NCBI GenBank assembly: GCA_038999725.1
Contig: JAWBWS010000002.1
Span: forward strand, 64,001 to 128,000
Length of the DNA stretch: 64,000 nt
Direction of reading: 5' to 3'
Source: Candidatus Aenigmatarchaeota archaeon
GTDB taxonomy: Archaea > Aenigmatarchaeota > Aenigmatarchaeia > CG10238-14 > SCSR01
Shown piece after piece: positions 1 through 24,883 of the stretch (positions are counted from its first letter, which is position 1; each line of letters opens with the position of its first letter). Below the pieces are notes generated by a model. It was not told the origin of the DNA and made no database searches. It saw only the letters and a list, made by a program, of their open reading frames with translations. The position numbers were made by a program, and so were the translations under genes.

Positions 1-1
1 C

Positions 2-259
2 GGTTTGATAAGAAAGATTAAGAGGTGTAGGAACAAAGCTTCCATGACGAAACTGTTGGATGAACTTATAACCAGGATGAAAGAGGAAAATGAAATTTTG
101 AGACTTCAAGTAATGGCAAGAGAGAAAGAGAGAGATGAATACAAAAAAGAGCTTGATGAAATACATCAATCTATTAGTTATAGAGTTGGCAGGAGTATAG
201 CCGAAACAAGAATTGGTGGATGGCTCAAAAAAATCTTAAGGAAGTACATTTGGAAATGA
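2..259 (+). CDS. 3' end of a gene truncated by the window edge; coiled-coil plus amphipathic tail, probably the C-terminus of another radical SAM paralog
   Basis: Frame is open from base 2. The tail EENEILRL...LDEIHQSISYRVGRSIAETRIGGWLKK resembles the C-terminal extension of the rSAM at 9279-10676 (EENRHLRK...LIKIKSSLTFKIMTKIGNSRIGKIIK). Confidence 0.6.
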   Translation, partial: GLIRKIKRCRNKASMTKLLDELITRMKEENEILRLQVMAREKERDEYKKELDEIHQSISYRVGRSIAETRIGGWLKKILRKYIWK

Positions 260-263
260 TAAG

Positions 264-2481: not shown

Positions 2482-2497
2482 AGGAAGGTGGTGAAAG

Positions 2498-3643
2498 ATT
2501 AGAATAAAAGGAATTATTTATGATGTAGGATTGGAGTATTGGCAAGGTCAACCAGTTCGAAAGATTTCTGAAGAAACTATGAGAAGTGAATTTAAAATTA
2601 TAAAAGATGAGCTCAATTGCAATGCCATAGGCTTTCATGGAAGTTTTAACGATAAATTGCTGAAGGCTGCAAAAATTGCTTTAGAAGAGGAATTAGAGGT
2701 ATGGTTATTTCCTCGATACATTAACAAAAATATAGAGGAAACACTTGGTTTATTTAAAGAATTTGCTTTTAATGCAGAAAAATTGAGAAAGGAGTATGGG
2801 AAACTCATTCTTGGAATTGGAGACGAGCTAACTGTTAATTGTTCAAGCTTCTTCAGTGGAAAAAAGTATGTGGACAGGGTAAGAAGATTAACCGTCTACA
2901 TATTTTTAAAAAATCTTTACCCCTTGATAATGGGCGAAAAAACCGATGAATGGTTTTTTAAGTTTAAGGATAGGGAATTTGTATTCGAGAATCTATTTCC
3001 AGATTACATAAGCAGAGAAAGAATTGAAGAATTTGAAGATTATGCCATCTCAATTGAAAGATTTTTAAAAGAATTTGATGAGAAATTTATGAAATTCATA
3101 GAAGAAATGGCGAATATAGGAAGAAACAATTTCAATGGAAAAATTACTTACAGCTCTGGATGGTGGGAAGAGCTGAATTGGAAGTTATTTGACATAATAG
3201 GGATTGGTATGTACATGGACCAAACAAATTGGTTCATTTATTCTGAAATTTTGAAAAAATTAAAAGAAAGATTTAACATGCCTCTAGTTGTTACAGAATT
3301 TGGGGCAGCAACTTTTCGACATGCTAGTATGTATGGTGGAGGAGCATGGTTGATTTTTGACAAACATGAAGTTGAAAGAAGTGAAGAAGAACAAGCAGAA
3401 CACATAGAAAGGCAATTTAATCTAATTAGGAAAAGTGGTGCTGATGGTGCTTTTTGCTTTATCTTTCTTGATGTTCCAGAGAAAGTGCATGTAGAGAATC
3501 CAAAGTATTACAAGGAGGATGGAGATAGAGGTGGGTATGGTATAATGAAAATTTATCCTGATGGAAGGTTAGAGCCTAAAAAGTCATTTTATGTTCTTAA
3601 AAATTTGTATAAAAGTGTTTCAGAAAACTCAAGTGTAGATTAA
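2498..3643 (+). CDS. TIM-barrel glycoside-hydrolase-like protein (putative ATT start)
   Basis: Frame opens after TGA 2492-2494 and reads IRIKGIIYDVG before the first TTG; IGDEL and VVTEFG are clan-A-like Glu motifs; GGTGGTGA RBS lies just upstream of ATT 2498. Confidence 0.7.
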   Translation: MRIKGIIYDVGLEYWQGQPVRKISEETMRSEFKIIKDELNCNAIGFHGSFNDKLLKAAKIALEEELEVWLFPRYINKNIEETLGLFKEFAFNAEKLRKEYGKLILGIGDELTVNCSSFFSGKKYVDRVRRLTVYIFLKNLYPLIMGEKTDEWFFKFKDREFVFENLFPDYISRERIEEFEDYAISIERFLKEFDEKFMKFIEEMANIGRNNFNGKITYSSGWWEELNWKLFDIIGIGMYMDQTNWFIYSEILKKLKERFNMPLVVTEFGAATFRHASMYGGGAWLIFDKHEVERSEEEQAEHIERQFNLIRKSGADGAFCFIFLDVPEKVHVENPKYYKEDGDRGGYGIMKIYPDGRLEPKKSFYVLKNLYKSVSENSSVD

Positions 3644-3709: not shown

Positions 3710-3856
3710 ATGAAGAAGTTTGTTTGTTGCCCAAATTGTGGAGAAAAATTTGAAATAAGCTACGCTAGAACTTTCGCCTGTGGTTCTTGCCCTTCTGTGA
3801 TTCAATGCAACCTTATAAAATGTCCTAAATGTGGGCATGAATTCAAAAAACCTTAA
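3710..3856 (+). CDS. small Cys-rich protein (48 aa, 8 Cys; CPxCG zinc-ribbon-like)
   Basis: Translated by hand: MKKFVCCPNCGEKFEISYARTFACGSCPSVIQCNLIKCPKCGHEFKKP; below the ORF-track size cutoff. Confidence 0.8.
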   Translation: MKKFVCCPNCGEKFEISYARTFACGSCPSVIQCNLIKCPKCGHEFKKP

Positions 3857-4940
3857 ACTCCAAAAGTTTTTCTCCAATCTCTCTATTTCGAATAGATTGA
3901 GTAAAAACACAAAATTTGCATTCTTCTCTTATTTTTTTCTCAACAAAATTTTTCCTTTCTTCTTCAAAATATTCACCGAACCAAATTTCACTTAGAGATT
4001 TTTCTTTAATGTTTTCAGGAGATCCTTCGACCATACAACAAAAAGTTGCTTCGCCATTCCCCTTAACCAAAAAATGCAAAAAAGGCTCGAAACAAGGGGG
4101 AAGATTCTTTTGTGTTTTAGTTTCTACTGATGGCATGATAACATCCTCTGAACTTTTTTTGAGATGAAAGAGATTTGTATTTACACCAATTTGCAGTGAA
4201 AGTTCTATAGCTTCGTCAAGATTTGCCTGAAAAATTTTATTCTGCTCTTCATTCATCTCCAATATTTTGACCGAATCATCGTAAATTATTAATGGGATAA
4301 ATGTTACATCTTCACATCCAACTTCAGAAGCAAAAACTATCATCTCCTTTATCTTATCAAAAATTTTGTTAGTTAACACTGTGTTAAAAACTATGTGAGG
4401 CTTTTCTGAACTAAATCTCTTTTTATATTGTTTGAAAAGTTTCAGTGTAGTTTTAGCCTTCTTAAATGTTCCCTTAACACCTCTGATGAAATCGTTATCT
4501 CTTGAATTTGGCGCGTCGATGCTAAACATTATCCTATCCCATCCCATTTGAACAATTTTTTTTATATCCCTTTCAGAAAGCAATGTACCATTCGTGTTGA
4601 GGTTTCCTGCCATATTAAAATCTTTAATTTTTTTCATCAATTTCAAGGTAGTTTCTTTTCTAACAAAAGGTTCACCACCTCCTGTTATTAGAAATTCTTT
4701 TGCATCCAACTCATGAGCTTCTTCTACAAGTTTAAGCAATCTTTCTTCTTTTACCTCTAACTGCATTTCATTTCTTGGGTTATATTCTATTCCACTTTCT
4801 TTTAGCCTTCGTCTGTGAGCCCATGTACCACACATCCAACACCTTAAATTACACCTATTAGTTGGCCAAACCTCTATAAGAAAAGGTCCTACCTGCTTGC
4901 CTTTAGCCCATTTCTCAATCCTTTTGATTTTTTCATCCAT
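3843..4940 (-). CDS. radical SAM/SPASM-Twitch protein
   Basis: CNLRCWMC, GGGEP, TNG, PCFEPF, CKFC. Confidence 0.9.
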   Translation of the reverse strand: MDEKIKRIEKWAKGKQVGPFLIEVWPTNRCNLRCWMCGTWAHRRRLKESGIEYNPRNEMQLEVKEERLLKLVEEAHELDAKEFLITGGGEPFVRKETTLKLMKKIKDFNMAGNLNTNGTLLSERDIKKIVQMGWDRIMFSIDAPNSRDNDFIRGVKGTFKKAKTTLKLFKQYKKRFSSEKPHIVFNTVLTNKIFDKIKEMIVFASEVGCEDVTFIPLIIYDDSVKILEMNEEQNKIFQANLDEAIELSLQIGVNTNLFHLKKSSEDVIMPSVETKTQKNLPPCFEPFLHFLVKGNGEATFCCMVEGSPENIKEKSLSEIWFGEYFEEERKNFVEKKIREECKFCVFTQSIRNREIGEKLLEFKVF

Positions 4941-4942
4941 TT

Positions 4943-6001
4943 TTATTCCTTTAATTTTCTTCTTATTTCTTTATTTTCATCCACCAAAGGAACGCAACAC
5001 CTAGAACACCACTCAGGTAATTTTTTCAAGATTTCATTCCTCACTCTATCAAAATCCTTGTACCAAATCTCTTTTAAAGACTTTTCATTTAATTTTATTC
5101 CACCCTCTTTCGGCCACTGTGCACACGGTGTTACAAATCCATTAGAATTGATGTTTATGGTATACCAAGGTAGAAAACAAGGAGGGAGCTTCTTATCTTC
5201 GTCCAAAATTATTTCTTCCATTTTGTTTGAGTATAAATACAACTTTTTTTCAATCACTTCATCCAAATTGCTGAAAACGCCAAACTTTTTTCCAATCTCT
5301 TTCGCTTCTTGTAGAAACATGTTCACTTCTTTTACTTCATCTTCATTTATTTTTAGAAGTTTGGATTCTTCAGTTAGCTCTATTAGGGGTAAAACGTACA
5401 CGAAATTTACATCACTAGCGGAAAGTAATTGCATGAGTTTCCCCAACTCTTTATAATTTCTGTTAGTAAGAACAAAATTAACTTCTACTGTTGGAAAATT
5501 TGACTTTAACTTTCTCTTGACTCGTGAAAAACTTTTGACAAGTCTAAAAGCTTTGTCAAAAGACCCTTTTACACCTCTCAGATATTCATGTGTTTTTTTA
5601 AGACCATCTATGCTAACCCTTATTAAATCCCATTCCATTCTAACGATTTCCACAACATCTCTCTCTTTAACCAAAGAACCATTTGTGACAATTGACCCAG
5701 CTATTCCCTTATTTTTTATCTTTTTCATAATTTTCATTAAAATTTCTTTCCTCATGAATGGTTCGCCTCCGAGAATGCCACAAACTTTTACTTCCATTTC
5801 ACAAATTTCATTTATAGTCTTGAGAATTCTCTTGTCGTTCATCTCATTTCTTATAACTTCAATTGGGCTTTTTGAATAATTACAAAACTTGCATTTAAAA
5901 TTACAAGCTTCTGTAAGGAAAATATCTACTTTTATGGGATCTTCTTTTTTTCCATTTAAAAAATTTTTCAGCCTTCTAACAGTTTCTTCTAGGTGAGACA
6001 T
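4943..6001 (-). CDS. radical SAM/SPASM-Twitch protein
   Basis: Start MSHLEETVRRL overlaps the upstream stop (TAATG); CNFKCKFC, GGEP, PCFLPW, CSRC. Confidence 0.9.
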   Translation of the reverse strand: MSHLEETVRRLKNFLNGKKEDPIKVDIFLTEACNFKCKFCNYSKSPIEVIRNEMNDKRILKTINEICEMEVKVCGILGGEPFMRKEILMKIMKKIKNKGIAGSIVTNGSLVKERDVVEIVRMEWDLIRVSIDGLKKTHEYLRGVKGSFDKAFRLVKSFSRVKRKLKSNFPTVEVNFVLTNRNYKELGKLMQLLSASDVNFVYVLPLIELTEESKLLKINEDEVKEVNMFLQEAKEIGKKFGVFSNLDEVIEKKLYLYSNKMEEIILDEDKKLPPCFLPWYTININSNGFVTPCAQWPKEGGIKLNEKSLKEIWYKDFDRVRNEILKKLPEWCSRCCVPLVDENKEIRRKLKE

Positions 6002-7095
6002 TAAAGAACCTTCCTCAATTCTTCTCTTATCCTCAAATTCCAGGACAAATGAGTGGAAACACAATTTGAACAACTATCCAAAATTTTTCCACTCATTACA
6101 ACTTTTCTAAAAGCTTCAAATTCTTCACCATACCAAACATCCTCAAAGTTTCTTTTCCTCACACTTACCTCTTTCTTGCAAAAATCTGAAAGAAATATTG
6201 TAGAGCATGGACCAACTCTTCCATCGGCTTCTATCTTTGGCCAAATCCAAGGCTCGAAACATGGAATTTTAAGGAAAGGGTCTTTTTCATCCTTTGAAAA
6301 TTCAAGGATTTTCTCTTTCAAGTCCCCAGTCTTTTCAATCTCTTTTATTTCGAAGAGAACGTCTAGATTTGTTGAAACACCCAAAACAGTTGCAAGCTCT
6401 TTCCATTCTGAAATTTTTTTAAGTATAAAATCTCTCTCCTTTTGAGAAACCTTCAGCTTTTCCACGTTTGGATTACTTACAAAAACTGGCTCAAAAGTTA
6501 TGTTCTTTACCCCATAAGAACCAGCGAGTTTAATTATTTCTCCCAACTGAAAAAAATTGATTTTTGAAACAACTGTGCTAAACTCTAAAAATGGTTTTTC
6601 TTTCTTAAGAAGTTTCTTATAATAATTGAAAAGTTTAATATTCTTAACAATTTTTTTAAATGTACCTTTCACGCCTCTGGATTTATCATTCACTTCTGGA
6701 GTAGCACCATCAACACTAAAAATCACATTGTCCCATTCCATTTCTGTCACCATTTTTATATCTTTTTCCCTCCAAAGAGTTCCATTGGTAACAATCCTAC
6801 CCATGACTTTATTTTCTTTAATTATTTCCATCATCTTTAAAGTGGTCTCTGGAACCATCATGGGCTCACCACCGCCACTTATTTGTATTATATCCACACC
6901 CATTTCACAAAGTTCTTTTGTTAGTTCAAGCCACCTTTTTTTAGGTAAATCTTTTGAATAGTCATAGGGCTTGAGTCTTTGGAAGCAAAAGGGGCATTCC
7001 AAGTTGCATCTGTTAGTAGGATAAACTAGAACTTTATTTGGAGGTGCCTTTTTTCCCCTTCCCCATCTTGCCAATTTAGAAATCAATTCTTCCAT
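6001..7095 (-). CDS. radical SAM/SPASM-Twitch protein
   Basis: CNLECPFC, GGGEP, PCFEPW, CSNC. Confidence 0.9.
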   Translation of the reverse strand: MEELISKLARWGRGKKAPPNKVLVYPTNRCNLECPFCFQRLKPYDYSKDLPKKRWLELTKELCEMGVDIIQISGGGEPMMVPETTLKMMEIIKENKVMGRIVTNGTLWREKDIKMVTEMEWDNVIFSVDGATPEVNDKSRGVKGTFKKIVKNIKLFNYYKKLLKKEKPFLEFSTVVSKINFFQLGEIIKLAGSYGVKNITFEPVFVSNPNVEKLKVSQKERDFILKKISEWKELATVLGVSTNLDVLFEIKEIEKTGDLKEKILEFSKDEKDPFLKIPCFEPWIWPKIEADGRVGPCSTIFLSDFCKKEVSVRKRNFEDVWYGEEFEAFRKVVMSGKILDSCSNCVSTHLSWNLRIREELRKVL

Positions 7096-7153
7096 CTTTA
7101 TTATAAAAATTTTTTAAAAAATATAAGTTTATAAGAAAAATTGTAGTTAAACC

Positions 7154-8194
7154 ATGATTTACAGAAAATTAGGAAAAACAGGCCTTAAAGTTTCTGTATT
7201 AGGAATTGGTGGGGGAGCATTTTTTGGAAGTGATAAAAAGAAGGATCAAGTTGGAAAAATAATAGAGTACGGTTTTAGAAATGGCATAACTCTTATCGAA
7301 ACGGCAGAAGATTATGGAGAGGAAAAAATCGCTTCATTTATAGAAAAAATAAGGGAAAAAATTATTTTGGCTTCAAAATCCTTTTCCTCCAACAAAAAAG
7401 ATATGGAAAAATCAATAAAAAATAGTCTTAGAAAATTGGCAACAAATTATATAGACATTTACATGATGCACACGGTAGATTCAATTGAAAGTCTAAATTT
7501 TAGAATTAATAATGGTGTTCTTTCAGCCCTAAAAATAGCAAAATCAAAAGGCATGATAAAATATATAGGAATCACTAGTCATAATATCCCAACTTTAATT
7601 GAGGCTGTTAAGACTAACGAGTTTGATGTAATTGAAGTCCCTTATTGTATAGGTGCAAGTGAAACGGAAGAATTGTTCGATTACACAAAAAAGTATGGAA
7701 TAGGTGTGATTGCTATGAGACCTTTGGGTGGCGGTATTCTAGTAGATAGAAGTAAGAAAATACATTTCATGAACGTGAAAAATGCACTAGGATATGTGCT
7801 TTCGAATAAAAATGTAGCATCTGCTTTGGTTGGTGTAAGTTCTGAAGCACACTTAGAAGAGAATTTAAAGGCCATTAATTCTGTAAATCTTTCTAACTTT
7901 CCAAGAAAAGTGGTGGAGAAAAAAACAAAAGAATTTTTAGGTTCAAATTTTTGTAGGGGATGTCTTGCTTGTATGCCTTGTAAAGTTCATGGTTGGTCTT
8001 TACCTATCGATCAACTGATGCGAATGGAAATTTTCTATTTCAAATATAAAATCCTTAGTGTAGAAACAGATTATAAAAATCTCAATTTAAAAGCAAGTGA
8101 TTGTACCAAATGTAAAGAATGTGAAAAAAAATGTCCTTACAACGTGCCAATAATAAAAAAAATGGAAAAATTGGAAAGGGTTTTTGGTGAATAA
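7154..8194 (+). CDS. aldo/keto reductase with C-terminal 4Fe-4S ferredoxin-like domain
   Basis: YRKLGKTGLKVSVLGIG, YIDIYMMH, MRPLGGG; CRGCLAC and CTKCKECEKKCP. Confidence 0.9.
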   Translation: MIYRKLGKTGLKVSVLGIGGGAFFGSDKKKDQVGKIIEYGFRNGITLIETAEDYGEEKIASFIEKIREKIILASKSFSSNKKDMEKSIKNSLRKLATNYIDIYMMHTVDSIESLNFRINNGVLSALKIAKSKGMIKYIGITSHNIPTLIEAVKTNEFDVIEVPYCIGASETEELFDYTKKYGIGVIAMRPLGGGILVDRSKKIHFMNVKNALGYVLSNKNVASALVGVSSEAHLEENLKAINSVNLSNFPRKVVEKKTKEFLGSNFCRGCLACMPCKVHGWSLPIDQLMRMEIFYFKYKILSVETDYKNLNLKASDCTKCKECEKKCPYNVPIIKKMEKLERVFGE

Positions 8195-9289
8195 ATGCAC
8201 GAAGAAAAAATTAAAAGAATATTAAGATGGTTTAATGGGGAAATTTCACCCCCCTTCAAAATGGTTTTGATACCAACAAATAGATGTAACCTTAAATGTC
8301 CTTACTGTCCAAACGCCATTCCAAGATTGGAAGGAAAATTTAAGAAGGAGTATGAGCTCTCTACCGATGAATGGGTTAGAATTGTTAAAGAAGGGCTTGA
8401 ATTGGGTATAAAGGAATGGAGTATTATCGGGGGTGGAGAACCATTCTTAAGAAAAGAGGTTGTACTAAAAGTTGTTAAATTGGTAAAAAATCACGCAGCT
8501 ACTGAATGTGAGATAATCACTAATGGATCATTAATTGATGAAGAAGTTGCTAGAAATTTGGTAGTCTCTAGACTTGATAGAATACTATTCAGTATAGATG
8601 GTCCAAATGCTAAAATACATGATTCACTGAGAGGAGTAAAAGGAACTTTTAAAAGAGTCGAATCTTCCCTAAAACTTTTAAATAAATGGAAGGAAAGACT
8701 TAAAGAAGACAAGCCTTATGTTAAAGTAAATATGGTAATCAACAAACTAAATTTCAAAAAATTGTCCAATATGGTAAAATTTGTCCATAAATTCAAAGCT
8801 AAAGAACTAGCTTTACACCCTATGAGAGAGTATTTTGACTCAGTTGACCTAAATGAATTTTCTCTAACTGAAGAAGATAAGCTCGAGCTTCAGTATCATG
8901 TAGAAAAAGCTAGAAAAATCGCTGAGAAATTGAATGTATTTTTAAATATAGAAATGTTATTGTTGAAAACCATGGTGCCAAAAGAGAAAAAGTTGAAAGG
9001 TAAAATTTTGAAGAAAATTGAAAAATGCAGCTGTTTTGAGCCACTTTACACAATGCTAGTCGATTCAAATGGTTTTGTTAACTGTTGCTCTCCTAGTGGA
9101 AGTGGTATAAAAAGTTTAAATGTGAGAAGAATGTCACTAAAAGAAATTTGGCTAAGTAGAGAACTTTTTTCTTTAAGAAAAAAAGTTCTAAATGGTGGAT
9201 CTTTTACATATTGTGATAAATGTGGCTTAACTGATATTAAGTTTCACATTAGAGAAGAGCTACTAAAGAGTGTTGAACATGAAGTTTAG
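8195..9289 (+). CDS. radical SAM/SPASM-Twitch protein
   Basis: CNLKCPYC, GGGEP, CFEPL, CDKC. Confidence 0.9.
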   Translation: MHEEKIKRILRWFNGEISPPFKMVLIPTNRCNLKCPYCPNAIPRLEGKFKKEYELSTDEWVRIVKEGLELGIKEWSIIGGGEPFLRKEVVLKVVKLVKNHAATECEIITNGSLIDEEVARNLVVSRLDRILFSIDGPNAKIHDSLRGVKGTFKRVESSLKLLNKWKERLKEDKPYVKVNMVINKLNFKKLSNMVKFVHKFKAKELALHPMREYFDSVDLNEFSLTEEDKLELQYHVEKARKIAEKLNVFLNIEMLLLKTMVPKEKKLKGKILKKIEKCSCFEPLYTMLVDSNGFVNCCSPSGSGIKSLNVRRMSLKEIWLSRELFSLRKKVLNGGSFTYCDKCGLTDIKFHIREELLKSVEHEV

Positions 9290-11766: not shown

Positions 11767-11767
11767 A

Positions 11768-14031: not shown

Positions 14032-14211
14032 TTTAAATCAACTTTGAATTATTCACTAAAATTTATATTTGTATTTAAATTTTAAACTACCACCTAGTCG
14101 TCCTCTAAAGTTACTTCAAAACATGAATGAAGACGCTTCTTGGGTGGAAGAGCTTGAAAGGTTAATATAGAAGCAAAGAAAGTGTACATTATCTCTCTCC
14201 TAACATTACAC

Positions 14212-15321: not shown

Positions 15322-15325
15322 AATT

Positions 15326-16420: not shown

Positions 16421-16593
16421 ATTAATAAATAATTAAACTCAAAAATCTATTGGTTACTGTTCAACATCTCCCAACTTGAAAATGTTAAAAAATTACAATA
16501 TCTTGAAACAACTCTCCCAAAAGTCACAATAATCTCAACTTCTCTGAAAAGAAAGTGATTTATATATACCAAATAATTCTTATACACCAAAAA

Positions 16594-17163
16594 CTACACT
16601 GTGGCCAATATTTCACAATCTTTTCTTATTTCTACATCAGTGATATTTTTACAAAATTCTAATGCACCATCCTTACTTATTGCTTTATAAACACTAGCTT
16701 TGCACTTGTAAAAGGAATCATAGTCATTTTGATATATAGTAAGAATTTCATCACATTCCTCTAAACCTCTTGTAACATTTCCTACCTCTTTCCACACATC
16801 ACCTCTACAATGATATTTTTCAGGCCCAGAAATTTTATCACATTCGAGTAGTGCCGAATCTACACCTTTTACTATAAGAGAAAAAGCCAAACAAAAATTT
16901 TCAACTACATTTCCTTTTTTAGAGCATAACACACGAGCAGCATCTATTTCACCGGCTTGAGTAAGCATTCTGGCCACACAACTTATTGGATCCTGAGGGG
17001 TTGTAGCTTCACATGGAGATTTATAAGAAATACATAGATCCTTACCTTTTTTAAGATCGCTACAAAAATCCGAAGTTATTTGAATATGAGAAGTATATAG
17101 GTAAACAACCCACAAAACACAAACAATTGTTACTATGATTGATATCAGCTTTAGTAGTCTCAT
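16594..17163 (-). CDS. membrane-anchored Cys-rich helical-repeat protein
   Basis: N-terminal TM segment; 13 Cys in repeated A..EC.xI....C units. Confidence 0.75.
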   Translation of the reverse strand: MRLLKLISIIVTIVCVLWVVYLYTSHIQITSDFCSDLKKGKDLCISYKSPCEATTPQDPISCVARMLTQAGEIDAARVLCSKKGNVVENFCLAFSLIVKGVDSALLECDKISGPEKYHCRGDVWKEVGNVTRGLEECDEILTIYQNDYDSFYKCKASVYKAISKDGALEFCKNITDVEIRKDCEILATV

Positions 17164-17213
17164 ATTTTTTTTTTAAGTATAATATGAATATAAATATAAC
17201 TAATTAAAAACAT

Positions 17214-18260
17214 CTAACAAGCATTGAAAAGTATGTTTTTTTCAACAAGCAAATTGTAAATTTTTTCAGTTACTAGTTGATATCCAAATGGGTTAAGATG
17301 CAAATCTATAGAATTAAGGTATAAATTTTCTCCTGAATGTTGGAAAAACAAAGTATCTAAATCAATTATATACCAATGATTTTTTTTAACAATTTCTGGG
17401 AAAGGGGCTTTTTGGAACTCAGGGGTATGAATGGTTAAAATTATTATTTCAGTATTAAATGGAATGTAAGAAGCTAGTTTTTCAAAACTGTTTTTTATTA
17501 TCTCTTGTGCTTTTCTTTCATCAACTTCTTTTAGAGCTTTAAGTCTTATTCTGGCTTCAAAATGTACCCTCTCTTCTAAAGTTAATGGGCGTCCAAGTTT
17601 TTGTTTCAATTCACTCTCTGCTTTTCGTATTTCTTTCCCCAATTCTATGTTGCTAATGATATCATCTCCTGTATATTGAAAAATAATAATGTTGGGTGAG
17701 AAGTTTAGCGCTTTGGATCTTAAAACTTCAATTTTTTCGATTATGTCATAGCCTGGAACACCAAAATTTAACACTTCATAATTTTTCCCATCATTTCTCT
17801 CATTTAAAAGTCTTTCAAGCACTTTGGGGTAACTGTCTTCTAAATTTACACCCAAACCAAATGTATGTGAATCTCCTATTGCAATTATCCTACAGGCATT
17901 TGGAGGTTTTATTAAAGGATATTCTTTATCCCTAAATCCATAAGAATTGATTTTTATATAAACGGGTGATTGACATAAATATAAACCATCGTAAATTCCT
18001 TCATAATTTGGGCGTAATTCTGCACTTAAAAAAGAATTATTACTCCTTTCCATAAAATCATGGGGACAAGCAGGGGGCCCTGTGCCTATCTCTTTACAAG
18101 GACAGTTTGAAAAGTTTGAAGTCAAAACTTTTGGAGAGTAGCCTATTATTTGAAATTCTTTTTTATTAGAAATGATTTTGATGGAGAACAAAACTGTCAA
18201 AGTAATTATAGAAATAAGATAGGCAATGTAAACTAAAGTACTTCTTTTCATTTCTCTCAT
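17214..18260 (-). CDS. SGNH/GDSL hydrolase (SxtL-like), membrane anchored
   Basis: INSYGFRD, IGDSHTFG, NFGVPGY, DLHLN. Confidence 0.85.
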   Translation of the reverse strand: MREMKRSTLVYIAYLISIITLTVLFSIKIISNKKEFQIIGYSPKVLTSNFSNCPCKEIGTGPPACPHDFMERSNNSFLSAELRPNYEGIYDGLYLCQSPVYIKINSYGFRDKEYPLIKPPNACRIIAIGDSHTFGLGVNLEDSYPKVLERLLNERNDGKNYEVLNFGVPGYDIIEKIEVLRSKALNFSPNIIIFQYTGDDIISNIELGKEIRKAESELKQKLGRPLTLEERVHFEARIRLKALKEVDERKAQEIIKNSFEKLASYIPFNTEIIILTIHTPEFQKAPFPEIVKKNHWYIIDLDTLFFQHSGENLYLNSIDLHLNPFGYQLVTEKIYNLLVEKNILFNAC

Positions 18261-18261
18261 T

Positions 18262-18347
18262 AATTAAATAATTTTCTAAGATTAAATCATTTGTTTTCAC
18301 ACAACAAAGTAATAAGCATCTTGTGGTGAAGAAATTATGTTTTTCAT
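18262..18347 (-). pseudogene. degenerate duplicate of the carbamoyltransferase 3' end
   Basis: Reads IISSPQDAYY / (frameshift) VKTNDLILENYLI versus the intact IVCSPQDALNDFMKTNIDYLVLNNYLI; AAGCATCTTGTGGTGAA occurs in both. Confidence 0.65.
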
Positions 18348-20035
18348 TTCAAGTCACCTTTATCTATCAAATAATTGTTTAAAACCAAGTAATCTATGTT
18401 TGTTTTCATAAAATCATTTAAAGCATCTTGTGGTGAACAAACTATAGGCTCACCTCTTAGGTTAAAAGAAGTATTTATAACAGCTGGAACTCCTGTTAAA
18501 GAATAAAATTCTTCAATTAGCTTATGATATAGCTTTTCTCTTTTTTCAACTGTAGTCTGAGGTCTTGCTGTTCCGTCAACGTGTGTTGCAGAAATAATTT
18601 CTTTTCTTTTCTCATTTTTTACTGGTAAGGTAATAATCATGAAAGGCATATCTAGATCAAATTCAAAATATCTTTCAACTTCACCTAAAATGAGGGATGG
18701 AGCAAATGGTCTAAACCATTCTCTCTGTTTAACTTTCTTATTCAATATATCTTTCATTTTTGGATTTGAGGGATTTGCCAAAATACTTCTATGACCCAAA
18801 GCTCTTGGTCCCAATTCCATTCTGTCTTGAAACCAACCTACAACTTTATCTTTAGCTATAGCTTCTGCTGTAGCCCTTACTATTTCTTTATCACTCAACT
18901 TTTCAAACTTTATTTTTCTTGATTCGAGTAATTCCTTTATTTCCCTCTTAGAAAATTTTGGACCTAAAAACACATGTTTCATGACATATTTTCTTTTTTT
19001 ACCTAAAATTTTGTTATAAGTGTATAAAGCTGCACCTAGAGCTCCTCCAGCATCTGTAGCTGCTGGTTGAAAGAAGACATTTTTAAAAATTTTACTCATC
19101 AAAATTTTTCCATTCGCTACAGAATTCAAAACAACACCGCCAGCCATGCATAAATTTTCACATTTTGTTAGGTCAAAAGCATGTTTAACTATCTTCAGAA
19201 TAACTTCTTCAGTAATTCTCTGTAGAGAGGCTGCAATATCCATATGTCTTCTTTCTATTTTTTCCTCGGGTTTTCTTGCTTTCCCAAACTCTTTTTCCAA
19301 CTCGTCAGAAAACATTCTTTCACTATGTGTATAGGAGAAATACCTCATGTTGAGTTTGAAACTTCCATCATCCTTAAAATCAATCAACTTTTTGAATTTG
19401 TTATAGTAAATTGGCTTCCCCCAACCTGCTAACCCCATTACCTTATACTCATCGCTCAAAACTTTGAAACCCAGATAGGAAGTTATTGTGCTGTAAAGAA
19501 GACCGAGGGAATGGGGAAAATTTATCACTTTTAAAGTTTTAATTTCATTTCCTTGGCCATAATGAATTGCTGTTGTTGTCCATTCCCCCACAGCATCTAT
19601 AGTAACTATAGCTGCCTCATCAAAAGGGGAGGAAAAAAAGGCGCTGGCAGCATGAGATTTGTGATGAGGGACAAAAAGAGTCTCATGTGTGTAATCAAGA
19701 TTTTTCTTTATCATCTCAGGCATTCTTAATTTTTCAAGTATCCACTGTGGTAAAGCATCTCTAAACATTTTGAAAGAATTGGGGAATGTTTCAACACAAG
19801 TTTGGAGAATTCTTTCAAATTTTTGAAAAGGTTTTTCATAAAAAACCACATAGTCTAATTTTTCAGGATTTACATTGGCTTCTTTAAGGCAATAGTTTAT
19901 TACATTCTTTGGAAAGCTGTTATCGTGTTTGACCCTTGTAAACCTTTCCTCTTCTGCTGCAGCTATTACTCTTCCGTCCTTGAGAATACAGGCTGATGAA
20001 TCATGAAAAAAACAAGAAATTCCTAACACATACAT
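18344..20035 (-). CDS. NodU/CmcH-family O-carbamoyltransferase (SxtI-like)
   Basis: MYVLGISCFFHDSSA, EEERFTRVKH, HHKSHA, GPRALGHRS, INTSFN. Confidence 0.95.
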   Translation of the reverse strand: MYVLGISCFFHDSSACILKDGRVIAAAEEERFTRVKHDNSFPKNVINYCLKEANVNPEKLDYVVFYEKPFQKFERILQTCVETFPNSFKMFRDALPQWILEKLRMPEMIKKNLDYTHETLFVPHHKSHAASAFFSSPFDEAAIVTIDAVGEWTTTAIHYGQGNEIKTLKVINFPHSLGLLYSTITSYLGFKVLSDEYKVMGLAGWGKPIYYNKFKKLIDFKDDGSFKLNMRYFSYTHSERMFSDELEKEFGKARKPEEKIERRHMDIAASLQRITEEVILKIVKHAFDLTKCENLCMAGGVVLNSVANGKILMSKIFKNVFFQPAATDAGGALGAALYTYNKILGKKRKYVMKHVFLGPKFSKREIKELLESRKIKFEKLSDKEIVRATAEAIAKDKVVGWFQDRMELGPRALGHRSILANPSNPKMKDILNKKVKQREWFRPFAPSLILGEVERYFEFDLDMPFMIITLPVKNEKRKEIISATHVDGTARPQTTVEKREKLYHKLIEEFYSLTGVPAVINTSFNLRGEPIVCSPQDALNDFMKTNIDYLVLNNYLIDKGDLK

Positions 20036-20043
20036 ATATACCA

Positions 20044-20256
20044 CTAATATTGACTTTTGTAATCTTCTTCCTCTTCTGGTTCCAACCAATAGCTTTCTTT
20101 ATTTTCTTTTTTTAAAATTGTTGAGAGCTTCCACAAAAGGAAAGACAAGCTGATACCCAACCAATATGAAAGTGTGTTAACAAAAAGATTTGTGATAAAT
20201 ATAGAAAACTCTTTTAACTTTTCTACTCCACATCTGATATTTTCAAATTTACCCAT
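20044..20256 (-). CDS. SxtJ-like small membrane protein
   Basis: TM segment, then SYW...DYKSQY C-terminus; lies between the SxtK-like gene and the carbamoyltransferase. Confidence 0.65.
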   Translation of the reverse strand: MGKFENIRCGVEKLKEFSIFITNLFVNTLSYWLGISLSFLLWKLSTILKKENKESYWLEPEEEEDYKSQY

Positions 20257-20261
20257 AGCTA

Positions 20262-20423
20262 TCATATCAGGGGATACATAAATAATGGCACGGGCGAAAC
20301 CTGAGCAGCTATAGTTAACAAACCTAGTATGAACAATAAGCAAATTAATGGAACAAGCCACCATTTTTTAGTCTTCCATATGAATTTTAAAATGTCCATG
20401 AGAAGATAAAATCTTCTCACCAT
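20262..20423 (-). CDS. SxtK/DUF5989-like small membrane protein (53 aa)
   Basis: Translated by hand: MVRRFYLLMDILKFIWKTKKWWLVPLICLLFILGLLTIAAQVSPVPLFMYPLI. Confidence 0.85.
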   Translation of the reverse strand: MVRRFYLLMDILKFIWKTKKWWLVPLICLLFILGLLTIAAQVSPVPLFMYPLI

Positions 20424-20556
20424 ACATATCCAATTTATATTATGGATTGAGAGTACTATAATTTTCGTTCTTCTATTCCTTTCTATTTCTCGACACTTCT
20501 AACAAAGAATAGGCAAATTTATTATTTTATAATCAAATTAAACTTCAAGAAGATTT

Positions 20557-21663
20557 ATGGAAGAATTGATTGAAAGATTGTTAGAATGGGGGAGAGGTAA
20601 AACCCAAGGACCCTTGAGCATACATTTAGACCCCACGAATAGATGTAATTTGAGATGTAGGTTTTGCTGGCAACGTTCTCATGAGAGGTTTGGTTGGCTC
20701 GATAGAAAAAATGAACTCCCAGAGAAAAAGCTTCTGGAAGTCGTGAGAGAGGCTGCAGAACTTAAAGTAAAAGATTGGCTCATCTCTGGTGGTGGAGAAC
20801 CTTTTGTGAGATTATCAACTACAACAAAACTTATGGTTGAAATAAAAAAACATGGAATGTATGGTGATATAATCACGAATGGCACACTATTGGATGAAAT
20901 TCACATAAGAAAAATTGTTGAAGCGGGATGGGATGTTATGCGATTCAGCGTGAATGCCCCTGATGAGAAAACTCATGATTTCATGGTTGATTGTAAAAGA
21001 TCTTATCAAAAAGTAATTGAAAACATCAAAACTACCCAGAAAATAAAGAAAAAGTTGGGTAAGGAAACACCTGTAATTGGTTTTAACACAGTAATCACTA
21101 GTAAAAACTACTTCTTGTTTCCCTCTTTGGTAGACTTATTGGAGGAATTGGGAGGGAAGATTCTCAATGTCCAAACTATAATTCTTTATGACAAGGTTGA
21201 AAAAATTTGGTCTTTGAATGAAGAAGAAAAAAAAGATTCTATAAAATATTTAAAAGAAGCTGCTAAAAAATGCAAAAAATATGGGATAAAAACTAATCTT
21301 GATAGCTACACGAAAGAGGATGTGATAGAAAAAACTACGGAAATGGATTCTATAGTAGAGCTTGGGAAAAAAGAAATAAAAAAAGTCAAGTCAAAAAACA
21401 AGTTGGTTAAAGCATTTTGTTATGAGCCTTTTTATTTGGTAACTATAAGAGCGAATGGAACAGTCGGCTCTTGTAGACTTTTTGGAGATAAGGGAGATAA
21501 TCTTCATACAAAAACTCTCAAAGAGATTTGGTTTGGTGAATATTTCAACAAAGCAAGGGCTACTTTACTAAAAGGTCCACAATCTTTCTGCTCGAAATGC
21601 GGCTCTAACGAAATTTTAGAGCAGATAAGGATAAGGAATGAATTAGTGAAGGTGTTGGGCTAA
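20557..21663 (+). CDS. radical SAM/SPASM-Twitch protein
   Basis: CNLRCRFC, GGGEP, CYEPF, CSKC. Confidence 0.9.
   Translation: MEELIERLLEWGRGKTQGPLSIHLDPTNRCNLRCRFCWQRSHERFGWLDRKNELPEKKLLEVVREAAELKVKDWLISGGGEPFVRLSTTTKLMVEIKKHGMYGDIITNGTLLDEIHIRKIVEAGWDVMRFSVNAPDEKTHDFMVDCKRSYQKVIENIKTTQKIKKKLGKETPVIGFNTVITSKNYFLFPSLVDLLEELGGKILNVQTIILYDKVEKIWSLNEEEKKDSIKYLKEAAKKCKKYGIKTNLDSYTKEDVIEKTTEMDSIVELGKKEIKKVKSKNKLVKAFCYEPFYLVTIRANGTVGSCRLFGDKGDNLHTKTLKEIWFGEYFNKARATLLKGPQSFCSKCGSNEILEQIRIRNELVKVLG
20632..20671 (+). repeat. 40-bp exact repeat, second copy at 21741-21780
   Basis: CCCACGAATAGATGTAATTTGAGATGTAGGTTTTGCTGGC occurs in two adjacent rSAM genes. Confidence 0.9.
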
Positions 21664-22751
21664 TGTTTGAAGATAAAATAGCTGAGAGGATTTTAGAATG
21701 GGGAAAGAAAGAGGTTGGGCCATTTGAAGTTCAATTCAATCCCACGAATAGATGTAATTTGAGATGTAGGTTTTGCTGGCTAAGGGATTTTGATAAAGGT
21801 GGGTTAAATCTAGAAGAGCTAAGCACTAAAAAATATTTGGAAATTGTAAAAGAATGCAGCAAGATGGGAGTCCACACAATTGAGATAACTGGTGGTGGTG
21901 AACCATTGATGAGAAAGGATTCTCTAACCTTAATGAAAAGTGTTAAGCGTCATAAGATTTATGGTAGACTGATAACCAACGGTACTCTTTTCTCAGAAAA
22001 CATGTTAAATACACTTATAAAAATAGGGTGGGATGAAATAGTTTTCAGTCTTGATGCTCCTGAGAGAAGTGTAAACGATTATTTGAGAGGTAAGAGCTTT
22101 GATCGGGTAGTTAAAACAATAAAGACGCTTCAGATAATGAAGGTTGAGAGAAAGAAAGAAAAGCCAGCTGTAAATATTCATATGGTGCTTTGCAACAAGA
22201 ATTTTCACCTTTTACCGAAGATGTTTGAATTTGCTTATGATTTGAATTGTAGAAATTTAGTTGTAGAGCCAATAGTCTTGCTCGCTACAAAAACTAAAGC
22301 TGGTAGAGAGTTGTTGTTCAGAAAAAAAGATAAAAACTCTTTACTCAAATTCATTCGTGAAGCAACTAAAATTGCACATAAGCACAACTTTCAAACAAAT
22401 ATTGATAAACTGGAGTTTAAGCTCATAGAAAGCACTACAAAAATGAAAAAGATTGTTAGAAAAGAGGGTGAAAAAGAAGAAATTCTCTGGGCATCTTTAG
22501 CATGCTATCAACCCTTTTATCATATTATAATAAGGCCATGGGGGATTGTTGGTCCATGTTGTATGTTTGATAATACAGGCGAAAATATAGCAGAAAAATC
22601 TTTAAGAGAAATATGGTTTGGGGAATTTTTCGAAAAAATGAGGAAGAAGATGTTGGATAGAAATTTACCAAATTTTTGCTCAAAGTGTAATCCAAGCCAA
22701 ATACAAGAAAACAGGAAGATAAGAGAATACATTAAAAGATTAAGTGATTGA
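21663..22751 (+). CDS. radical SAM/SPASM-Twitch protein
   Basis: CNLRCRFC, GGGEP, CYQPF, CSKC. Confidence 0.9.
   Translation: MFEDKIAERILEWGKKEVGPFEVQFNPTNRCNLRCRFCWLRDFDKGGLNLEELSTKKYLEIVKECSKMGVHTIEITGGGEPLMRKDSLTLMKSVKRHKIYGRLITNGTLFSENMLNTLIKIGWDEIVFSLDAPERSVNDYLRGKSFDRVVKTIKTLQIMKVERKKEKPAVNIHMVLCNKNFHLLPKMFEFAYDLNCRNLVVEPIVLLATKTKAGRELLFRKKDKNSLLKFIREATKIAHKHNFQTNIDKLEFKLIESTTKMKKIVRKEGEKEEILWASLACYQPFYHIIIRPWGIVGPCCMFDNTGENIAEKSLREIWFGEFFEKMRKKMLDRNLPNFCSKCNPSQIQENRKIREYIKRLSD
21880..21913 (+). repeat. 34-bp exact repeat, second copy at 22963-22996
   Basis: TTGAGATAACTGGTGGTGGTGAACCATTGATGAG occurs in two adjacent rSAM genes. Confidence 0.9.
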
Positions 22752-23825
22752 ATGGATGGAAAAATAGAAAGATTGATTGAATGGTCTGCGGGAAGGAGGG
22801 CAGCTCCATTCACCTTAGACATCAATCCTACTGATAAATGCAATTTTAAGTGTAAGCATTGTTGGCAAAGGGCATTTGAAAAAATTGATTTTAGTTATGA
22901 ACTTTCTGACAAGAAGCTAATAGAAGTTGTGAAGGAGGCTATAAAATTTGGGGTGGAAGAATTTGAGATAACTGGTGGTGGTGAACCATTGATGAGGAAA
23001 GAATTAACGTTAAAAATAATGGAAGTGATTAAAAAAAACAAAAAATTTGGAAACATAACGACTAATGGCAGTTTATTGAACTTGGAGGATATAAAAAAAA
23101 TGGTAAAAATTGGTTGGGATAGAATCACTTTTAGTTTGGATGGGGCTGACCCAAAATCAAATGATGCTGTACGAGGAAAGGGAAGCTTTGAGCAAGTTAT
23201 GAATTCTATAAAGCTGTTAAATGATGTGAAAAAGAAGATGAAAAGCAATTTACCTATTATCAAATTCAATGTAGTGGTTAACAGAAAAAATTATAGAGTT
23301 GAAAAAATGATAGAGTTGGCAAAAAAGGTGAACTGTTCAATTGTTCATTTCGATTCCCTTACAATTCATTCTAAAATGGGGGAAAAATTGAAGTTAACAA
23401 AAAGGCAACAAGCAGAATTTGAAAAGCATGCTAAAATTGCAAAGCAACTGGCTGAAAAGTTTAAGATATGGACTGATGTAAATCTTTTAACCAGTAAATT
23501 CTTGGAAAAATCAAATGAAATGGAAGATTTACTGGAAAAGGAAAGTGATTCAAAAGACTTCTTTTCTTTAGTTTGCTATGAGCCTTGGTGGCATCTTGTG
23601 ATAAAGACTAATGGTACAGCTCAACCTTGCTGTTTGTATGATGAAAAAGAAGAAAGTGTGAAAAACAAGAGTTTGAGGGAAATCTGGTTTGGTGAATTTT
23701 TTGAAAAAATAAGAAAGAGTATAAAGCAAAAACATTTTTCAAAATATTGTTCTATTTGCAATGCCGGGCAAGTTTTTGAAAACAGAAGAATAAGGGAAGA
23801 ATTGGGAAAATGGAGGAAAAAATAA
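22752..23825 (+). CDS. radical SAM/SPASM-Twitch protein
   Basis: CNFKCKHC, GGGEP, CYEPW, CSIC. Confidence 0.9.
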   Translation: MDGKIERLIEWSAGRRAAPFTLDINPTDKCNFKCKHCWQRAFEKIDFSYELSDKKLIEVVKEAIKFGVEEFEITGGGEPLMRKELTLKIMEVIKKNKKFGNITTNGSLLNLEDIKKMVKIGWDRITFSLDGADPKSNDAVRGKGSFEQVMNSIKLLNDVKKKMKSNLPIIKFNVVVNRKNYRVEKMIELAKKVNCSIVHFDSLTIHSKMGEKLKLTKRQQAEFEKHAKIAKQLAEKFKIWTDVNLLTSKFLEKSNEMEDLLEKESDSKDFFSLVCYEPWWHLVIKTNGTAQPCCLYDEKEESVKNKSLREIWFGEFFEKIRKSIKQKHFSKYCSICNAGQVFENRRIREELGKWRKK

Positions 23826-24883
23826 AAAGACTTGTAAGATGGTCTAAAGGAAGAAAGAGTTTACCTTACAGTATAGAATTGAGTCCAACTTTGAGATGTA
23901 ATTTGAATTGTCTTTTTTGTTGGAGATATGGGAAAAAGATTGAGTATGGAGATGAATTGACATTGGAAGAATATAAAAGGATTTTAAAGGAAGCTGAGGA
24001 GCTTAAGGTGAGAGAAATAAGAATCATAGGAGGAGGTGAACCCTTGTTAAGGAAAGATACTTTCGAATTAATGAAGGAAGTTAAAAAACATGGGATGTTC
24101 GGATACATTTGTACTAATGGTACACTCTTTTCAGATGAAGCTATAAAAACATTGGTATCAATTGGGTGGGATCATGTAAAAATTAGTGTTCATGCCCCTG
24201 ATAAAAAAACTCAAGACTTTTTAGCCCAAGGGAAAAGTTTTGAGAGGCAAATAAAAAACATAAAAAGTTTTGTTGGATGGAAAAGGAAATTGAAATCGGA
24301 GAGCCCGAAAATTGAAATTGGCCTTGTCTTGAATAGGCTGAACTTCAGAAAAGTAATGGATATGGTAAAACTGGTAAAGAAATTGAATGTACAAGCATTT
24401 TTCATTGAGCCAATAACTGTGTATACCAAAATTGGAAAAAATTTGAAATTAAGAAATGAAGAGAGTGAAGAATTCAAAGAAATAGCAAGAAAAGCTTATT
24501 CTATTTCAAATGGTTTGGAAACAAACTTACAACAATTTTTTTCACGGGAGCTTATAGAAAAGACTGGAAAGATGTTAGAAGAAATCAAAAAACTAGTAAA
24601 GAGTGTGAGGGATGATTTTCTTTCAATCCCTTGTTATGAGCCCTGGTGGAGAATGGGGATAAGGGTAGATGGATGGGTTTGTCCTTGTGGATTTTTGGAT
24701 CAAAACACCAGAGAAAATGTGCGTAATAAGAGTTTAAAGGAAATCTGGTTTGGTGAATATTTTGAGGAAAGGCGAAAACAATTGCTTCAAAAAAATATGC
24801 CAAAATATTGCCAGAAATGTTGCACTACTTTGGTCCAATATAATCAAATAATAAGGGAAGAACTTTCAAAATTCATAGGCTGA
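23810..24883 (+). CDS. radical SAM/SPASM-Twitch protein
   Basis: CNLNCLFC, GGGEP, PCYEPW, CQKC. Confidence 0.9.
   Translation: MEEKIKRLVRWSKGRKSLPYSIELSPTLRCNLNCLFCWRYGKKIEYGDELTLEEYKRILKEAEELKVREIRIIGGGEPLLRKDTFELMKEVKKHGMFGYICTNGTLFSDEAIKTLVSIGWDHVKISVHAPDKKTQDFLAQGKSFERQIKNIKSFVGWKRKLKSESPKIEIGLVLNRLNFRKVMDMVKLVKKLNVQAFFIEPITVYTKIGKNLKLRNEESEEFKEIARKAYSISNGLETNLQQFFSRELIEKTGKMLEEIKKLVKSVRDDFLSIPCYEPWWRMGIRVDGWVCPCGFLDQNTRENVRNKSLKEIWFGEYFEERRKQLLQKNMPKYCQKCCTTLVQYNQIIREELSKFIG

Follow-up and report, generated by a model that had tools for sequence, protein, structure and literature searches.

A 24-gene array of Twitch-type radical SAM paralogs within a putative glycan-export island of an Aenigmatarchaeota archaeon

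The DNA analysed here, called the window, is a stretch of 64,000 nucleotides from a Candidatus Aenigmatarchaeota archaeon, positions 64001-128000 of contig C2 of the source genome G000, and its left end lies inside a dense array of genes for radical S-adenosylmethionine (SAM) enzymes. The array holds 24 intact paralogs within 34.7 kb, of the predicted one-cluster Twitch form, and is embedded in an island with glycosyltransferases and an ATP-binding cassette (ABC) exporter. Based on domain make-up, conservation, gene context, fusions in other organisms, divergent pockets and a lack of peptide machinery, we consider it reasonably probable that the array supplies the cytoplasm with a battery of radical enzymes that tailor the sugars of a surface glycan destined for export. 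Radical SAM enzymes that act on sugars have so far come from antibiotic pathways, in ones and twos. Sugar tailoring by Twitch radical SAM enzymes is familiar; the scale of 24 paralogs and the setting in a glycan export island appear unprecedented.

The 15 radical SAM open reading frames (ORFs) listed for the window all match PF04055 Radical_SAM (61-104 bits, cut-off 29.5) and PF13186 SPASM (26.5-46.7 bits, cut-off 21.5). An earlier note on this DNA, made from the letters alone, had counted 15 complete genes in 25 kb and supposed that the array ran on to the left; both statements hold, since nine further intact paralogs, each with PF04055, lie at C2:54194-63991. All 24 carry PF04055 above its cut-off, and 22 of them PF13186 at E<=0.01. 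Six of the left-flank nine belong to the main family, and the three that adjoin a GT2 glycosyltransferase gene form a divergent subgroup. A profile built from the 15 sequences gave 24 matches in G000, all on C2 between 54263 and 88877 (E 8.8e-142 to 2.6e-40, 136-470 bits), and the next-best radical SAM genes, in a genome with 35 PF04055 matches in total, scored 50-69 bits (E 8e-20 or weaker). The 24 products sum to 8,855 residues, or ~26.6 kb, which is ~3.6% of an assembly of 729,769 bp in 9 contigs (93% complete, 0.2% contamination). The window sequence occurs in public runs with the label hot springs metagenome. Neighbouring genes overlap or meet end to end (for example 21663/21663, 22751/22752, 23810-23825, 11768-11790 and 12778-12781), which fits the frequent translational coupling also claimed in the note; for the coupled pair 22752-23825 and 23810-24883 a complex prediction scored 0.00, a value that we count neither for nor against interaction.

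Alignment of the 15 window paralogs reproduced the motifs that had been read from them before: an N-terminal ExIxRLxxWxxGKKxxP helix, missing only in the protein of 11768-12781, followed by CNLxCxFC, GGGEP and D..LRG.KG, and a C-terminal PCYxPW...G.V.PC...KSLKEIWFGE.F...RK...CxxC. Nineteen columns are invariant at pairwise identities of 24-36% to the first sequence. They include C40, C44, C47 and E92 of GGGEP, which establish membership of the radical SAM enzymes, and four auxiliary cysteines behind the barrel (C297, C315, C354 and C357, 15/15); in an alignment of 72 sequences the same four appear as C275, C293 and C334, without exception, and C337, at 90% conservation or more. A full SPASM domain has a seven-cysteine pattern including CxxCx5Cx3C and holds two auxiliary clusters. 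The Twitch domain was recognised as a shortened SPASM domain with one auxiliary [4Fe-4S] site, spaced as Cys, ~18 residues, Cys, ~40 residues, CxxC. Because only four cysteine columns are conserved after the barrel, we assign the paralogs to Twitch and not to the seven-cysteine form; a full SPASM domain is ruled out, the PF13186 matches being modest (26-47 bits), and of the combined SPASM/Twitch label given earlier the Twitch half alone stands. A profile search of solved structures matched the C-terminal part to BtrN (E 1e-18), with all four auxiliary cysteines and the following IW..F..RK helix coinciding in the residue alignment. By their predicted cluster sites, the paralogs are of the one-cluster BtrN type, fully cysteine-ligated.

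The family has no name in NCBIfam, a scan of which brought no paralog to a curated cut-off. Of the curated models, TIGR04317 (tungsten cofactor oxidoreductase radical SAM maturase) comes out best for 13 of the 15 window paralogs, whereas NF033640 gives protein 4, and TIGR04051 NirJ protein 5, a higher score; membership of TIGR04317 is rejected at 87-125 bits in the window and 87-133 bits overall, the cut-off being 380. Judged by score gaps only, the paralogs are thus distinct from the characterised families, to which the note had allowed that they might belong. Homologues are numerous, with 8,754 representatives at E<=1e-30 in a 50%-clustered library.

How old the copies are can be read from related genomes. 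Paralogs within G000 are 24-45% identical to each other, with best paralog-to-paralog identities of 36-45%. Among 39 other genomes of the same order, five have arrays (G003 with 23 matches, G005 with 16 and G006 with 19, all of the same genus, and G028 with 25 and G029 with 13, from two other families), 12 have one to four matches and 22 have none, the match-free ones including G002, G004 and G007 of the same genus (85-90% complete). In a 63-sequence tree, 20 of the 24 G000 genes pair one-to-one with a G028 gene (SH-aLRT 99-100), genome labels are unclustered (23 changes needed for 24 G000 rows), and the paralog groups have stems of 0.25-0.76 changes per column, against a median of 0.18 for the tips, most of which are shorter. 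On the strength of this pairing, the scattered labels and the long stems, the paralogs are old and individually kept across lineages. A recent lineage-specific amplification, a possibility raised in the note, is ruled out by the tree pairing together with the ortholog identities.

The G028 island is syntenic, in an order inverted relative to G000, and runs from an AlkP-like gene through an ABC-2 permease, an ATPase, a coiled-coil protein, GT2, three divergent radical SAM genes and the main run to an aldo/keto reductase (AKR), a Cys-rich 190-aa ORF, two GT4 genes, a glycosidase-like gene and a PMT_2-like gene. For 14 array genes with partners in both genomes, mean identity is ~72% to G003, of the same genus, and ~67% to G028, of another family. 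Four housekeeping proteins, by comparison, show 69-83% identity to G003/G005 versus 45-69% to G028 (aIF2-gamma 69-76/69, PheT 80-81/45, GlyRS 77/62, PheS 83/48). This difference, the patchy presence within the genus and the G+C of the array, which at 0.30-0.34 is slightly below the 0.34-0.38 further right, suggest, with four markers only and short of proof, lateral exchange of the island. The arrangement is no assembly artefact: in another sample (run X3), window 6406-25400 is tiled by contigs that differ from it at a few single bases and span the gene junctions of the variable middle block described below; an assembly chimera, the other outcome that would have undone the note's view, is excluded by these contigs and by recurrence in five other genomes.

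Compared gene by gene, the island resolves into conserved flanks and a variable middle block at window 7154-20089. The window opens with the 3' part of a conserved gene for a 91-aa coiled-coil protein, set between two array genes (1-259, + strand; C2:63984-64259), which tblastn located at the same array position in G003, G005 and G006 (67%), G028 (64%), and loci L053 (66%) and L058 (57%). The radical SAM-Twitch paralogs of the left block, given with their PF04055 and PF13186 bit scores and their ortholog identities in G028 and G003, are 264-1418 (+; 61.3 and 29.1; 75% and 68%), 1402-2481 (+; 68.9 and 39.3; 71% and 69%), 3843-4940 (-; 77.6 and 30.5; 50% and 60%; in a sister pair with support 100), 4943-6001 (-; 67.6 and 32.4; 63% and 64%) and, as the last gene of the block, 6001-7095 (-; 69.5 and 30.9; 75% and 78%). 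Two of these have late starts of the family type: the ORF that opens at 1333 has the conserved N-terminal helix from the ATG at 1402, and in the one open from 6073 it is the ATG at 6001 that agrees with the N-terminus of the family. Two other genes stand among them, for a cytoplasmic TIM-barrel glycosidase-like protein (2531-3643, +; weak PF22612 GH113 match, 22.6 bits, below the cut-off of 27) and, between it and the next radical SAM gene, for a 48-aa zinc-ribbon-like ORF with 9 cysteines in CPxCG-type knuckles (3710-3856, +), 85% identical in G003, G005 and G006, not found in G028 and without a PADLOC or NCBIfam family. The product of the 48-aa ORF may be a small zinc protein; that it is a peptide substrate is less likely.

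The variable middle contains six radical SAM genes that are only 39-49% identical to anything in related arrays, accompanied by five other genes. It begins with an AKR fused to a 4Fe-4S dicluster (ferredoxin) domain (7154-8194, +; PF00248 126.1 and PF13534 28.9 bits), the AKR genes inside the G028 and G006 arrays being only 33-38% identical. The paralogs are 8195-9289 (+; 90.1 and 26.5 bits; best identity 39% among fetched sequences), 9270-10676 (+; 63.2 and 35.9; an ortholog of equal length in G028 at 49%), which has an extra coiled-coil/amphipathic tail of ~90 aa, 10648-11790 (-; 65.9 and 42.5; best identity 45-46%; probable start 11766), the short 11768-12781 without the N-terminal helix (-; 66.2 and 46.7; 43% to G028 and 46% to G006), 14212-15321 (-; 65.0 and 38.6; best 41-48%) and 15326-16420 (-; 77.8 and 27.8; best 39-40%). 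A cytoplasmic phosphodiesterase-like protein of the alkaline phosphatase superfamily (12778-14031, -; PF01663 25.8 bits) overlaps the next radical SAM gene by 4 nt, and a 45% homologue lies directly upstream of the short radical SAM gene in G006 (L049). The block ends with a 189-aa Cys-rich protein that has an N-terminal membrane anchor, no Pfam, NCBIfam or PADLOC family, and 29% homologues inside the G028 and G006 arrays (16594-17163, -); a membrane-anchored GDSL esterase/acylhydrolase (17214-18260, -; PF13472 43.3 bits); and a NodU/CmcH-type carbamoyltransferase (18344-20089, -; PF02543 286.6 and PF16861 237 bits). Among fetched loci the best matches of the carbamoyltransferase are bacterial and adjoin radical SAM relatives (L097 46%, L121 45%, L093 43%); no homologue was found in the G028 or G003 arrays. 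The right block is again well conserved, with paralogs at 20557-21663 (+; 87.6 and 29.7; 78% in G028, 75% in G006), 21663-22751 (+; 83.7 and 42.4; 69% and 70%), 22752-23825 (+; 104.1 and 34.0; 71% and 75%) and 23810-24883 (+; 95.3 and 35.5; 72% in G028).

The last of these was modelled with AlphaFold2 (AF2; pLDDT 94.7, pTM 0.92). The N-terminus forms a single 12-residue helix, with only ~20 residues before the barrel, and the Twitch region a beta-hairpin followed by a helix. In a structure search against representatives the best match was BlsE (Z 26.3, 301 of 327 residues aligned, root-mean-square deviation 3.3), with SkfB (Z 25.4), SuiB (24.2), DesII (23.0), PqqE (22.8), anSME (21.4), GDGT-MAS (18.2) and BtrN (16.9) behind it; Foldseek ranked SuiB and SkfB first. 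An alignment of 13 orthogroups singled out 26 positions that are kept to 90% or more inside the groups but show six or more different residues from group to group. On a barrel strand or at most 5 residues after one lie 21 of the 26, in places for which 93 of 357 positions qualify (P 1.8e-9), and 13 are in the Twitch region (P 1.7e-4). In the model, these divergent positions line the barrel strands and the Twitch hairpin, a pattern that fits one substrate position per paralog.

The surroundings of the array point to glycan assembly and export. The left flank encodes an ABC-2 permease (PF01061 ABC2_membrane, 31.9 bits), its ATPase (PF00005, 73.8 bits), a GT2 glycosyltransferase (50.3 bits), the stop of which abuts the start of the first radical SAM gene, and two GT-C-type membrane proteins, one matching PMT_2 (42.8 bits). 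The ATPase has a C-terminal extension of ~200 aa and its best NCBIfam matches are TagH and Wzt, below cut-off; it also matches DrrA (121 bits). Immediately right of the array, a 71-aa small membrane protein (24873-25088, -), with counterparts beside the G028 array (68%) and in G029 (37%), precedes two GT4 glycosyltransferases, both syntenic in G028 (25055-26323, +, PF13692 79.9 and PF13439 72 bits; 26333-27469, +, PF13439 71.2 and PF13692 70.9 bits). A membrane-anchored glycosidase-like protein follows (27360-28469, +; probable start 27474), which has no Pfam family and whose syntenic G028 homologue has a faint GH113 match (E 0.002), and then a polytopic GT-C-like membrane protein (28475-30190, -; NF047440 LA_3751/2 family 48.4 bits, below cut-off), related left-flank and G028 proteins matching PMT_2. 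Three GT-C/PMT_2-type membrane transferases thus flank the array. With permease, ATPase and glycosyltransferases together, in an order kept in G028, the locus has, from its predicted gene products, the composition of an ABC-transporter-dependent glycan export system. A Wzt_C domain was not detected at this island; the loci of two relatives have one.

Between the ABC ATPase and GT2 lies a gene for a 377-aa protein with a long repetitive coiled coil and no family (C2:52160-53293; L028 8160-9293), kept at that place in G005 (50%) and G028 (37%). Coiled-coil chain-length regulators occur in ABC-dependent O-antigen pathways, and the position of the 377-aa protein recalls them. Further left (L029 9518-18902, L028 3-1655) are large secreted proteins, namely a 668-aa protein with Big domains, a 1371-aa protein with Laminin_G_3 and a Cys-rich repeat protein of more than 551 aa, which are candidate glycan acceptors; replication genes lie beyond them. 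The coiled-coil and amphipathic-tail module occurs twice in the genome, as the free 91-aa gene, which all the related arrays retain, and as the radical SAM tail at window 10380-10676 (28% identity over 88 aa, E 2e-7; only two copies), and may be a membrane-docking or scaffolding element.

Homologues in other genomes keep similar company. We surveyed 30 longer homologues at E<=1e-30 in a collection of 5.8 billion proteins, whose sources, where named, are Omnitrophota. Fusion partners were GT4 in six, GT2 in five, a methyltransferase in two, an additional B12-binding radical SAM module in two, and TPR repeats and HAD in one each; most of the others are chains of two to four radical SAM modules, and when the multi-module proteins were compared with adjacent G000 paralogs, the matches reached only 22-52% and followed no rule of pairing. 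The representative library has one member (P0119) joined to PF01663, the same phosphodiesterase family that is found inside the array (12778-14031), and three to TPR repeats. Of 74 loci from species-representative genomes, eight have arrays of 3-15 strong copies, all of them archaeal. We also inspected low-copy relatives at 34 loci in other phyla for glycan genes within ~3 genes or 6.5 kb, and found them at 20 (8/9 and 12/25 in two sets). A DegT sugar aminotransferase occurs at 6/34, WbqC at 5/34, and a carbamoyltransferase in L093, L066 and L121; three of these relative loci are Scalindua genomes and so not independent. Relatives also adjoin Wzz/Wzy, Wzt_C, GT9 and Poly_export genes. Butirosin biosynthesis follows an oxidise-then-aminate logic, and the DegT neighbours of the bacterial relatives fit such logic. 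B12-dependent radical SAM genes are found in or beside 13 fetched loci, including arrays L055 and L058, and are fused to Twitch modules in P0007, P0154 and P0155; the window has one at 31622-32962 (+; PF02310 57 and PF04055 87.1 bits), a possible companion of the array.

BtrN, the 2-deoxy-scyllo-inosamine dehydrogenase of butirosin and founding Twitch enzyme (PDB 4m7s/4m7t), shares with the paralogs a barrel and a short C-terminal domain with one auxiliary cluster site and four aligned cysteines. It acts on a sugar-like substrate. Unlike them it has ~250 aa and matches the model at a Z of only 16.9, the paralogs here adding ~100 residues between barrel and Twitch as well as the N-terminal helix, and it is a single enzyme of an antibiotic pathway, not one of 24. 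The cytosylglucuronate decarboxylase BlsE (PDB 7vob), the best whole-chain match, and DesII (PDB 8hzv/8hzy) both act on nucleotide-linked sugars; however, at 14-17% identity and E 9e-15 and 1.4e-8 over the barrel only, their reactions are not transferable. NF033640 (N_Twi_rSAM) matches both halves of the paralogs, in permuted order, since its Twitch part is N-terminal, and at 50-92 bits versus a cut-off of 170. The Wzm/Wzt and TagG/TagH pathways resemble the island in the ABC-2 permease, the ATPase with its extension, GT2, GT4 and the coiled-coil protein by the ATPase, and differ in the missing Wzt_C and in the 24 radical SAM paralogs. To our knowledge, no ABC-dependent glycan pathway holds more than a couple of radical SAM enzymes, and literature searches turned up none. 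We infer that the enzymes are of the BtrN-, BlsE- and DesII-like sugar radical kind, yet belong to none of the curated families tested. In the literature we found no description of such arrays; a preprint lists radical SAM within the sugar-metabolism module of giant Omnitrophota proteins (bioRxiv 10.64898/2026.06.07.730766).

In the mechanism that we propose, GT2 and GT4 would build up a glycan, linked to lipid, at the cytoplasmic side of the membrane, and each radical SAM paralog would abstract a hydrogen from one particular sugar C-H of the glycan or of nucleotide-sugar donors. The fully ligated auxiliary cluster would take or pass on the electron, as in BtrN, for which electron handling by this cluster has been proposed. 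The products would be keto-sugars or, where the intermediate is resolved in other ways, epimeric, deoxy- or decarboxylated sugars; the AKR-ferredoxin fusion, carbamoyltransferase, GDSL enzyme and B12-dependent radical SAM enzyme would finish the decoration, the ABC transporter would export the polymer, and GT-C enzymes would attach it outside. The variable middle cassette would change the chemistry from strain to strain, like the central region of an O-antigen locus. As to what is edited, we lean slightly towards a lipid-linked oligo- or polysaccharide, and consider nucleotide sugars a serious candidate that falls just short of an even chance. Since ~3.6% of the genome is spent on the 24 enzymes, the product should be central to the life of the organism, which is probably host-attached.

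A glycan-tailoring toolkit had been proposed in the earlier note, and gene context, fusions and the neighbourhoods of relatives support it indirectly. Several observations weigh against it. No nucleotide-sugar synthesis gene is present in the island. The predicted fold does not separate sugar from peptide enzymes, SkfB, SuiB, PqqE and anSME lying within ~5 Z of BlsE, and the test for specificity positions favours buried positions by construction. Several of the fusion proteins are known from single contigs only. As for the low-copy relatives, 14 of 34 have no glycan gene among their scanned neighbours (for example L059, L064 with FabH and SDR, and L073), the closest single-copy relative, L059 (358 bits), adjoins ThiF and a NifS-like gene, and with scores of 75-276 bits against the family profile they may be a different subfamily. 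Finally, the array contains conserved Cys-rich ORFs (48 and 189 aa) that are possible substrates in principle.

These last points lead to the idea that the enzymes are protein or peptide maturases, installing thioethers, C-C bonds or epimers on ribosomal products such as the 48-aa and 189-aa ORFs or the Cys-rich surface proteins of the left flank; we regard this as improbable, though it fares best among the alternatives. The closest folds include SkfB, SuiB, PqqE, anSME and CteB (the first four at Z 21-25, in the same fold class), PqqE, SkfB and SuiB are the best sequence matches among solved structures, and many of the NCBIfam matches, all below cut-off, are peptide maturases. The 48-aa ORF is conserved within the genus and the 189-aa ORF recurs in G028 and G006; however, the former was not found in G028, where 20 orthologous enzymes are kept, and the latter is only 29% conserved, with a membrane anchor that suggests an outside location. 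In the 31 window ORFs and 17 left-flank ORFs there is no RRE or PqqD family, peptidase or C39-type exporter, so that the profile of a maturase for ribosomally synthesised and post-translationally modified peptides is lacking, and the array has no precursor-peptide gene of the kind that accompanies SkfB, SuiB, PqqE and anSME. The note had seen no RRE/PqqD, peptidase or exporter, which holds for the first two; an exporter, of the ABC-2 type, lies just left of the window. With only ~20 residues before the barrel, the paralogs themselves also carry no RRE/PqqD domain. Peptide maturases of the SPASM kind usually have two auxiliary clusters, from seven cysteines, as opposed to the single four-cysteine site here, and the fusion partners are GT4, GT2 and PF01663, not peptide-handling domains.

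Tailoring of membrane lipids or glycolipids, in which isoprenoid chains or head groups would be modified as by Tes, Grs and Gms, seems to us a poor prospect. A second radical SAM group, at window 30222-34710 to the right of the glycan genes, could serve lipid or glycan-carrier chemistry; its members are a Tes/TrsS-like enzyme that bears an HMPTM zinc ribbon (165 and 140 bits against cut-offs of 490 and 450), the B12-dependent radical SAM enzyme, a class I methyltransferase and a UbiA prenyltransferase. This group would suit lipid tailoring, as would the structural match to GDGT-MAS and Gms itself, described as a SPASM/Twitch radical SAM enzyme with homologues in DPANN and defined by an extra COG4001 domain (PMC11214058). 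The ~360-aa paralogs, however, have room only for barrel and Twitch, a length from which COG4001 would seem to be absent, and they reach at most 50 bits on the Tes model NF045702 (cut-off 450). The Tes-like gene of the second group is itself far short of that cut-off, at 140 bits, and did not turn up next to the arrays in those parts of G028, G003, G005, G006 and G029 that were fetched; fusions and neighbours are glycosyltransferases.

We think it just as doubtful that the product is a diffusible small molecule (an aminocyclitol, a nucleoside or an oligosaccharide natural product) and not a surface polymer. The characterised sugar-acting Twitch and related radical SAM enzymes BtrN, BlsE, DesII, SpeY and AprD4 all come from antibiotic pathways. 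Carbamoyltransferases and AKRs are typical tailoring enzymes, and ABC-2 transporters export drugs too, as the DrrA match of the ATPase recalls. Nevertheless, the best matches of this ATPase are teichoic-acid and galactan exporters, the array is flanked by the three GT-C/PMT_2-type transferases and the large secreted proteins, the relatives adjoin polysaccharide genes such as Wzz/Wzy and Poly_export, and no scaffold-forming enzyme (cyclase, non-ribosomal peptide synthetase or polyketide synthase) occurs among the window and left-flank ORFs. An antiviral, nucleotide-modifying arsenal resembling prokaryotic viperins was rejected as highly improbable: all 15 window paralogs match the PADLOC pVip models (37-85 bits) and NCBIfam viperin_w_prok (NF038283, 40-79 bits in the window and 40-83 bits overall), yet only the shared barrel core is covered and the NCBIfam cut-off of 180 is missed by a wide margin. 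In the structure search viperins come after BlsE, SkfB and SuiB, and a Twitch cluster and glycan context are foreign to viperins.

If the sugar-tailoring battery is what we take it to be, there would be a class of surface polymers with chemistry unforeseen by standard glycobiology, a large set of enzymes, diversified by nature, that functionalise C-H bonds in defined pockets, and a way to test whether surface variation in DPANN archaea and Omnitrophota is linked to lateral exchange of the island. A bolder version, which we offer tentatively and think rather unlikely, is that a simple lipid-linked glycan made by two or three glycosyltransferases is rewritten residue by residue before export by two dozen position-specific enzymes, through oxidation, epimerisation, deoxygenation, cross-linking and methylation, and that the swappable cassette and lateral transfer of the island change the surface identity of ultra-small symbiotic archaea and Omnitrophota. 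Were that so, polymer-level epimerases and the peptide enzyme PoyD would gain a radical-SAM counterpart, and no known pathway would be richer in radical enzymes.

For the supply of such enzymes, G000 has genes for an archaeal SAM synthetase and, side by side, for IscS and IscU (C4:20752-22300); a SufBD core was not found in the 93% complete assembly, and Fe-S supply, judged from gene content, would rest on a minimal ISC-type system. Rfam identified three tRNA genes of 87-110 nt in the window, at 36670-36770 and 36840-36926 (+) and at 60413-60522 (-); ARAGORN reported no tRNA in the window or the left flank, and the three genes probably contain introns. The surface-gene island ends on the right at the first two of these and a gene for a HerA-like DUF87 ATPase (35345-36634).

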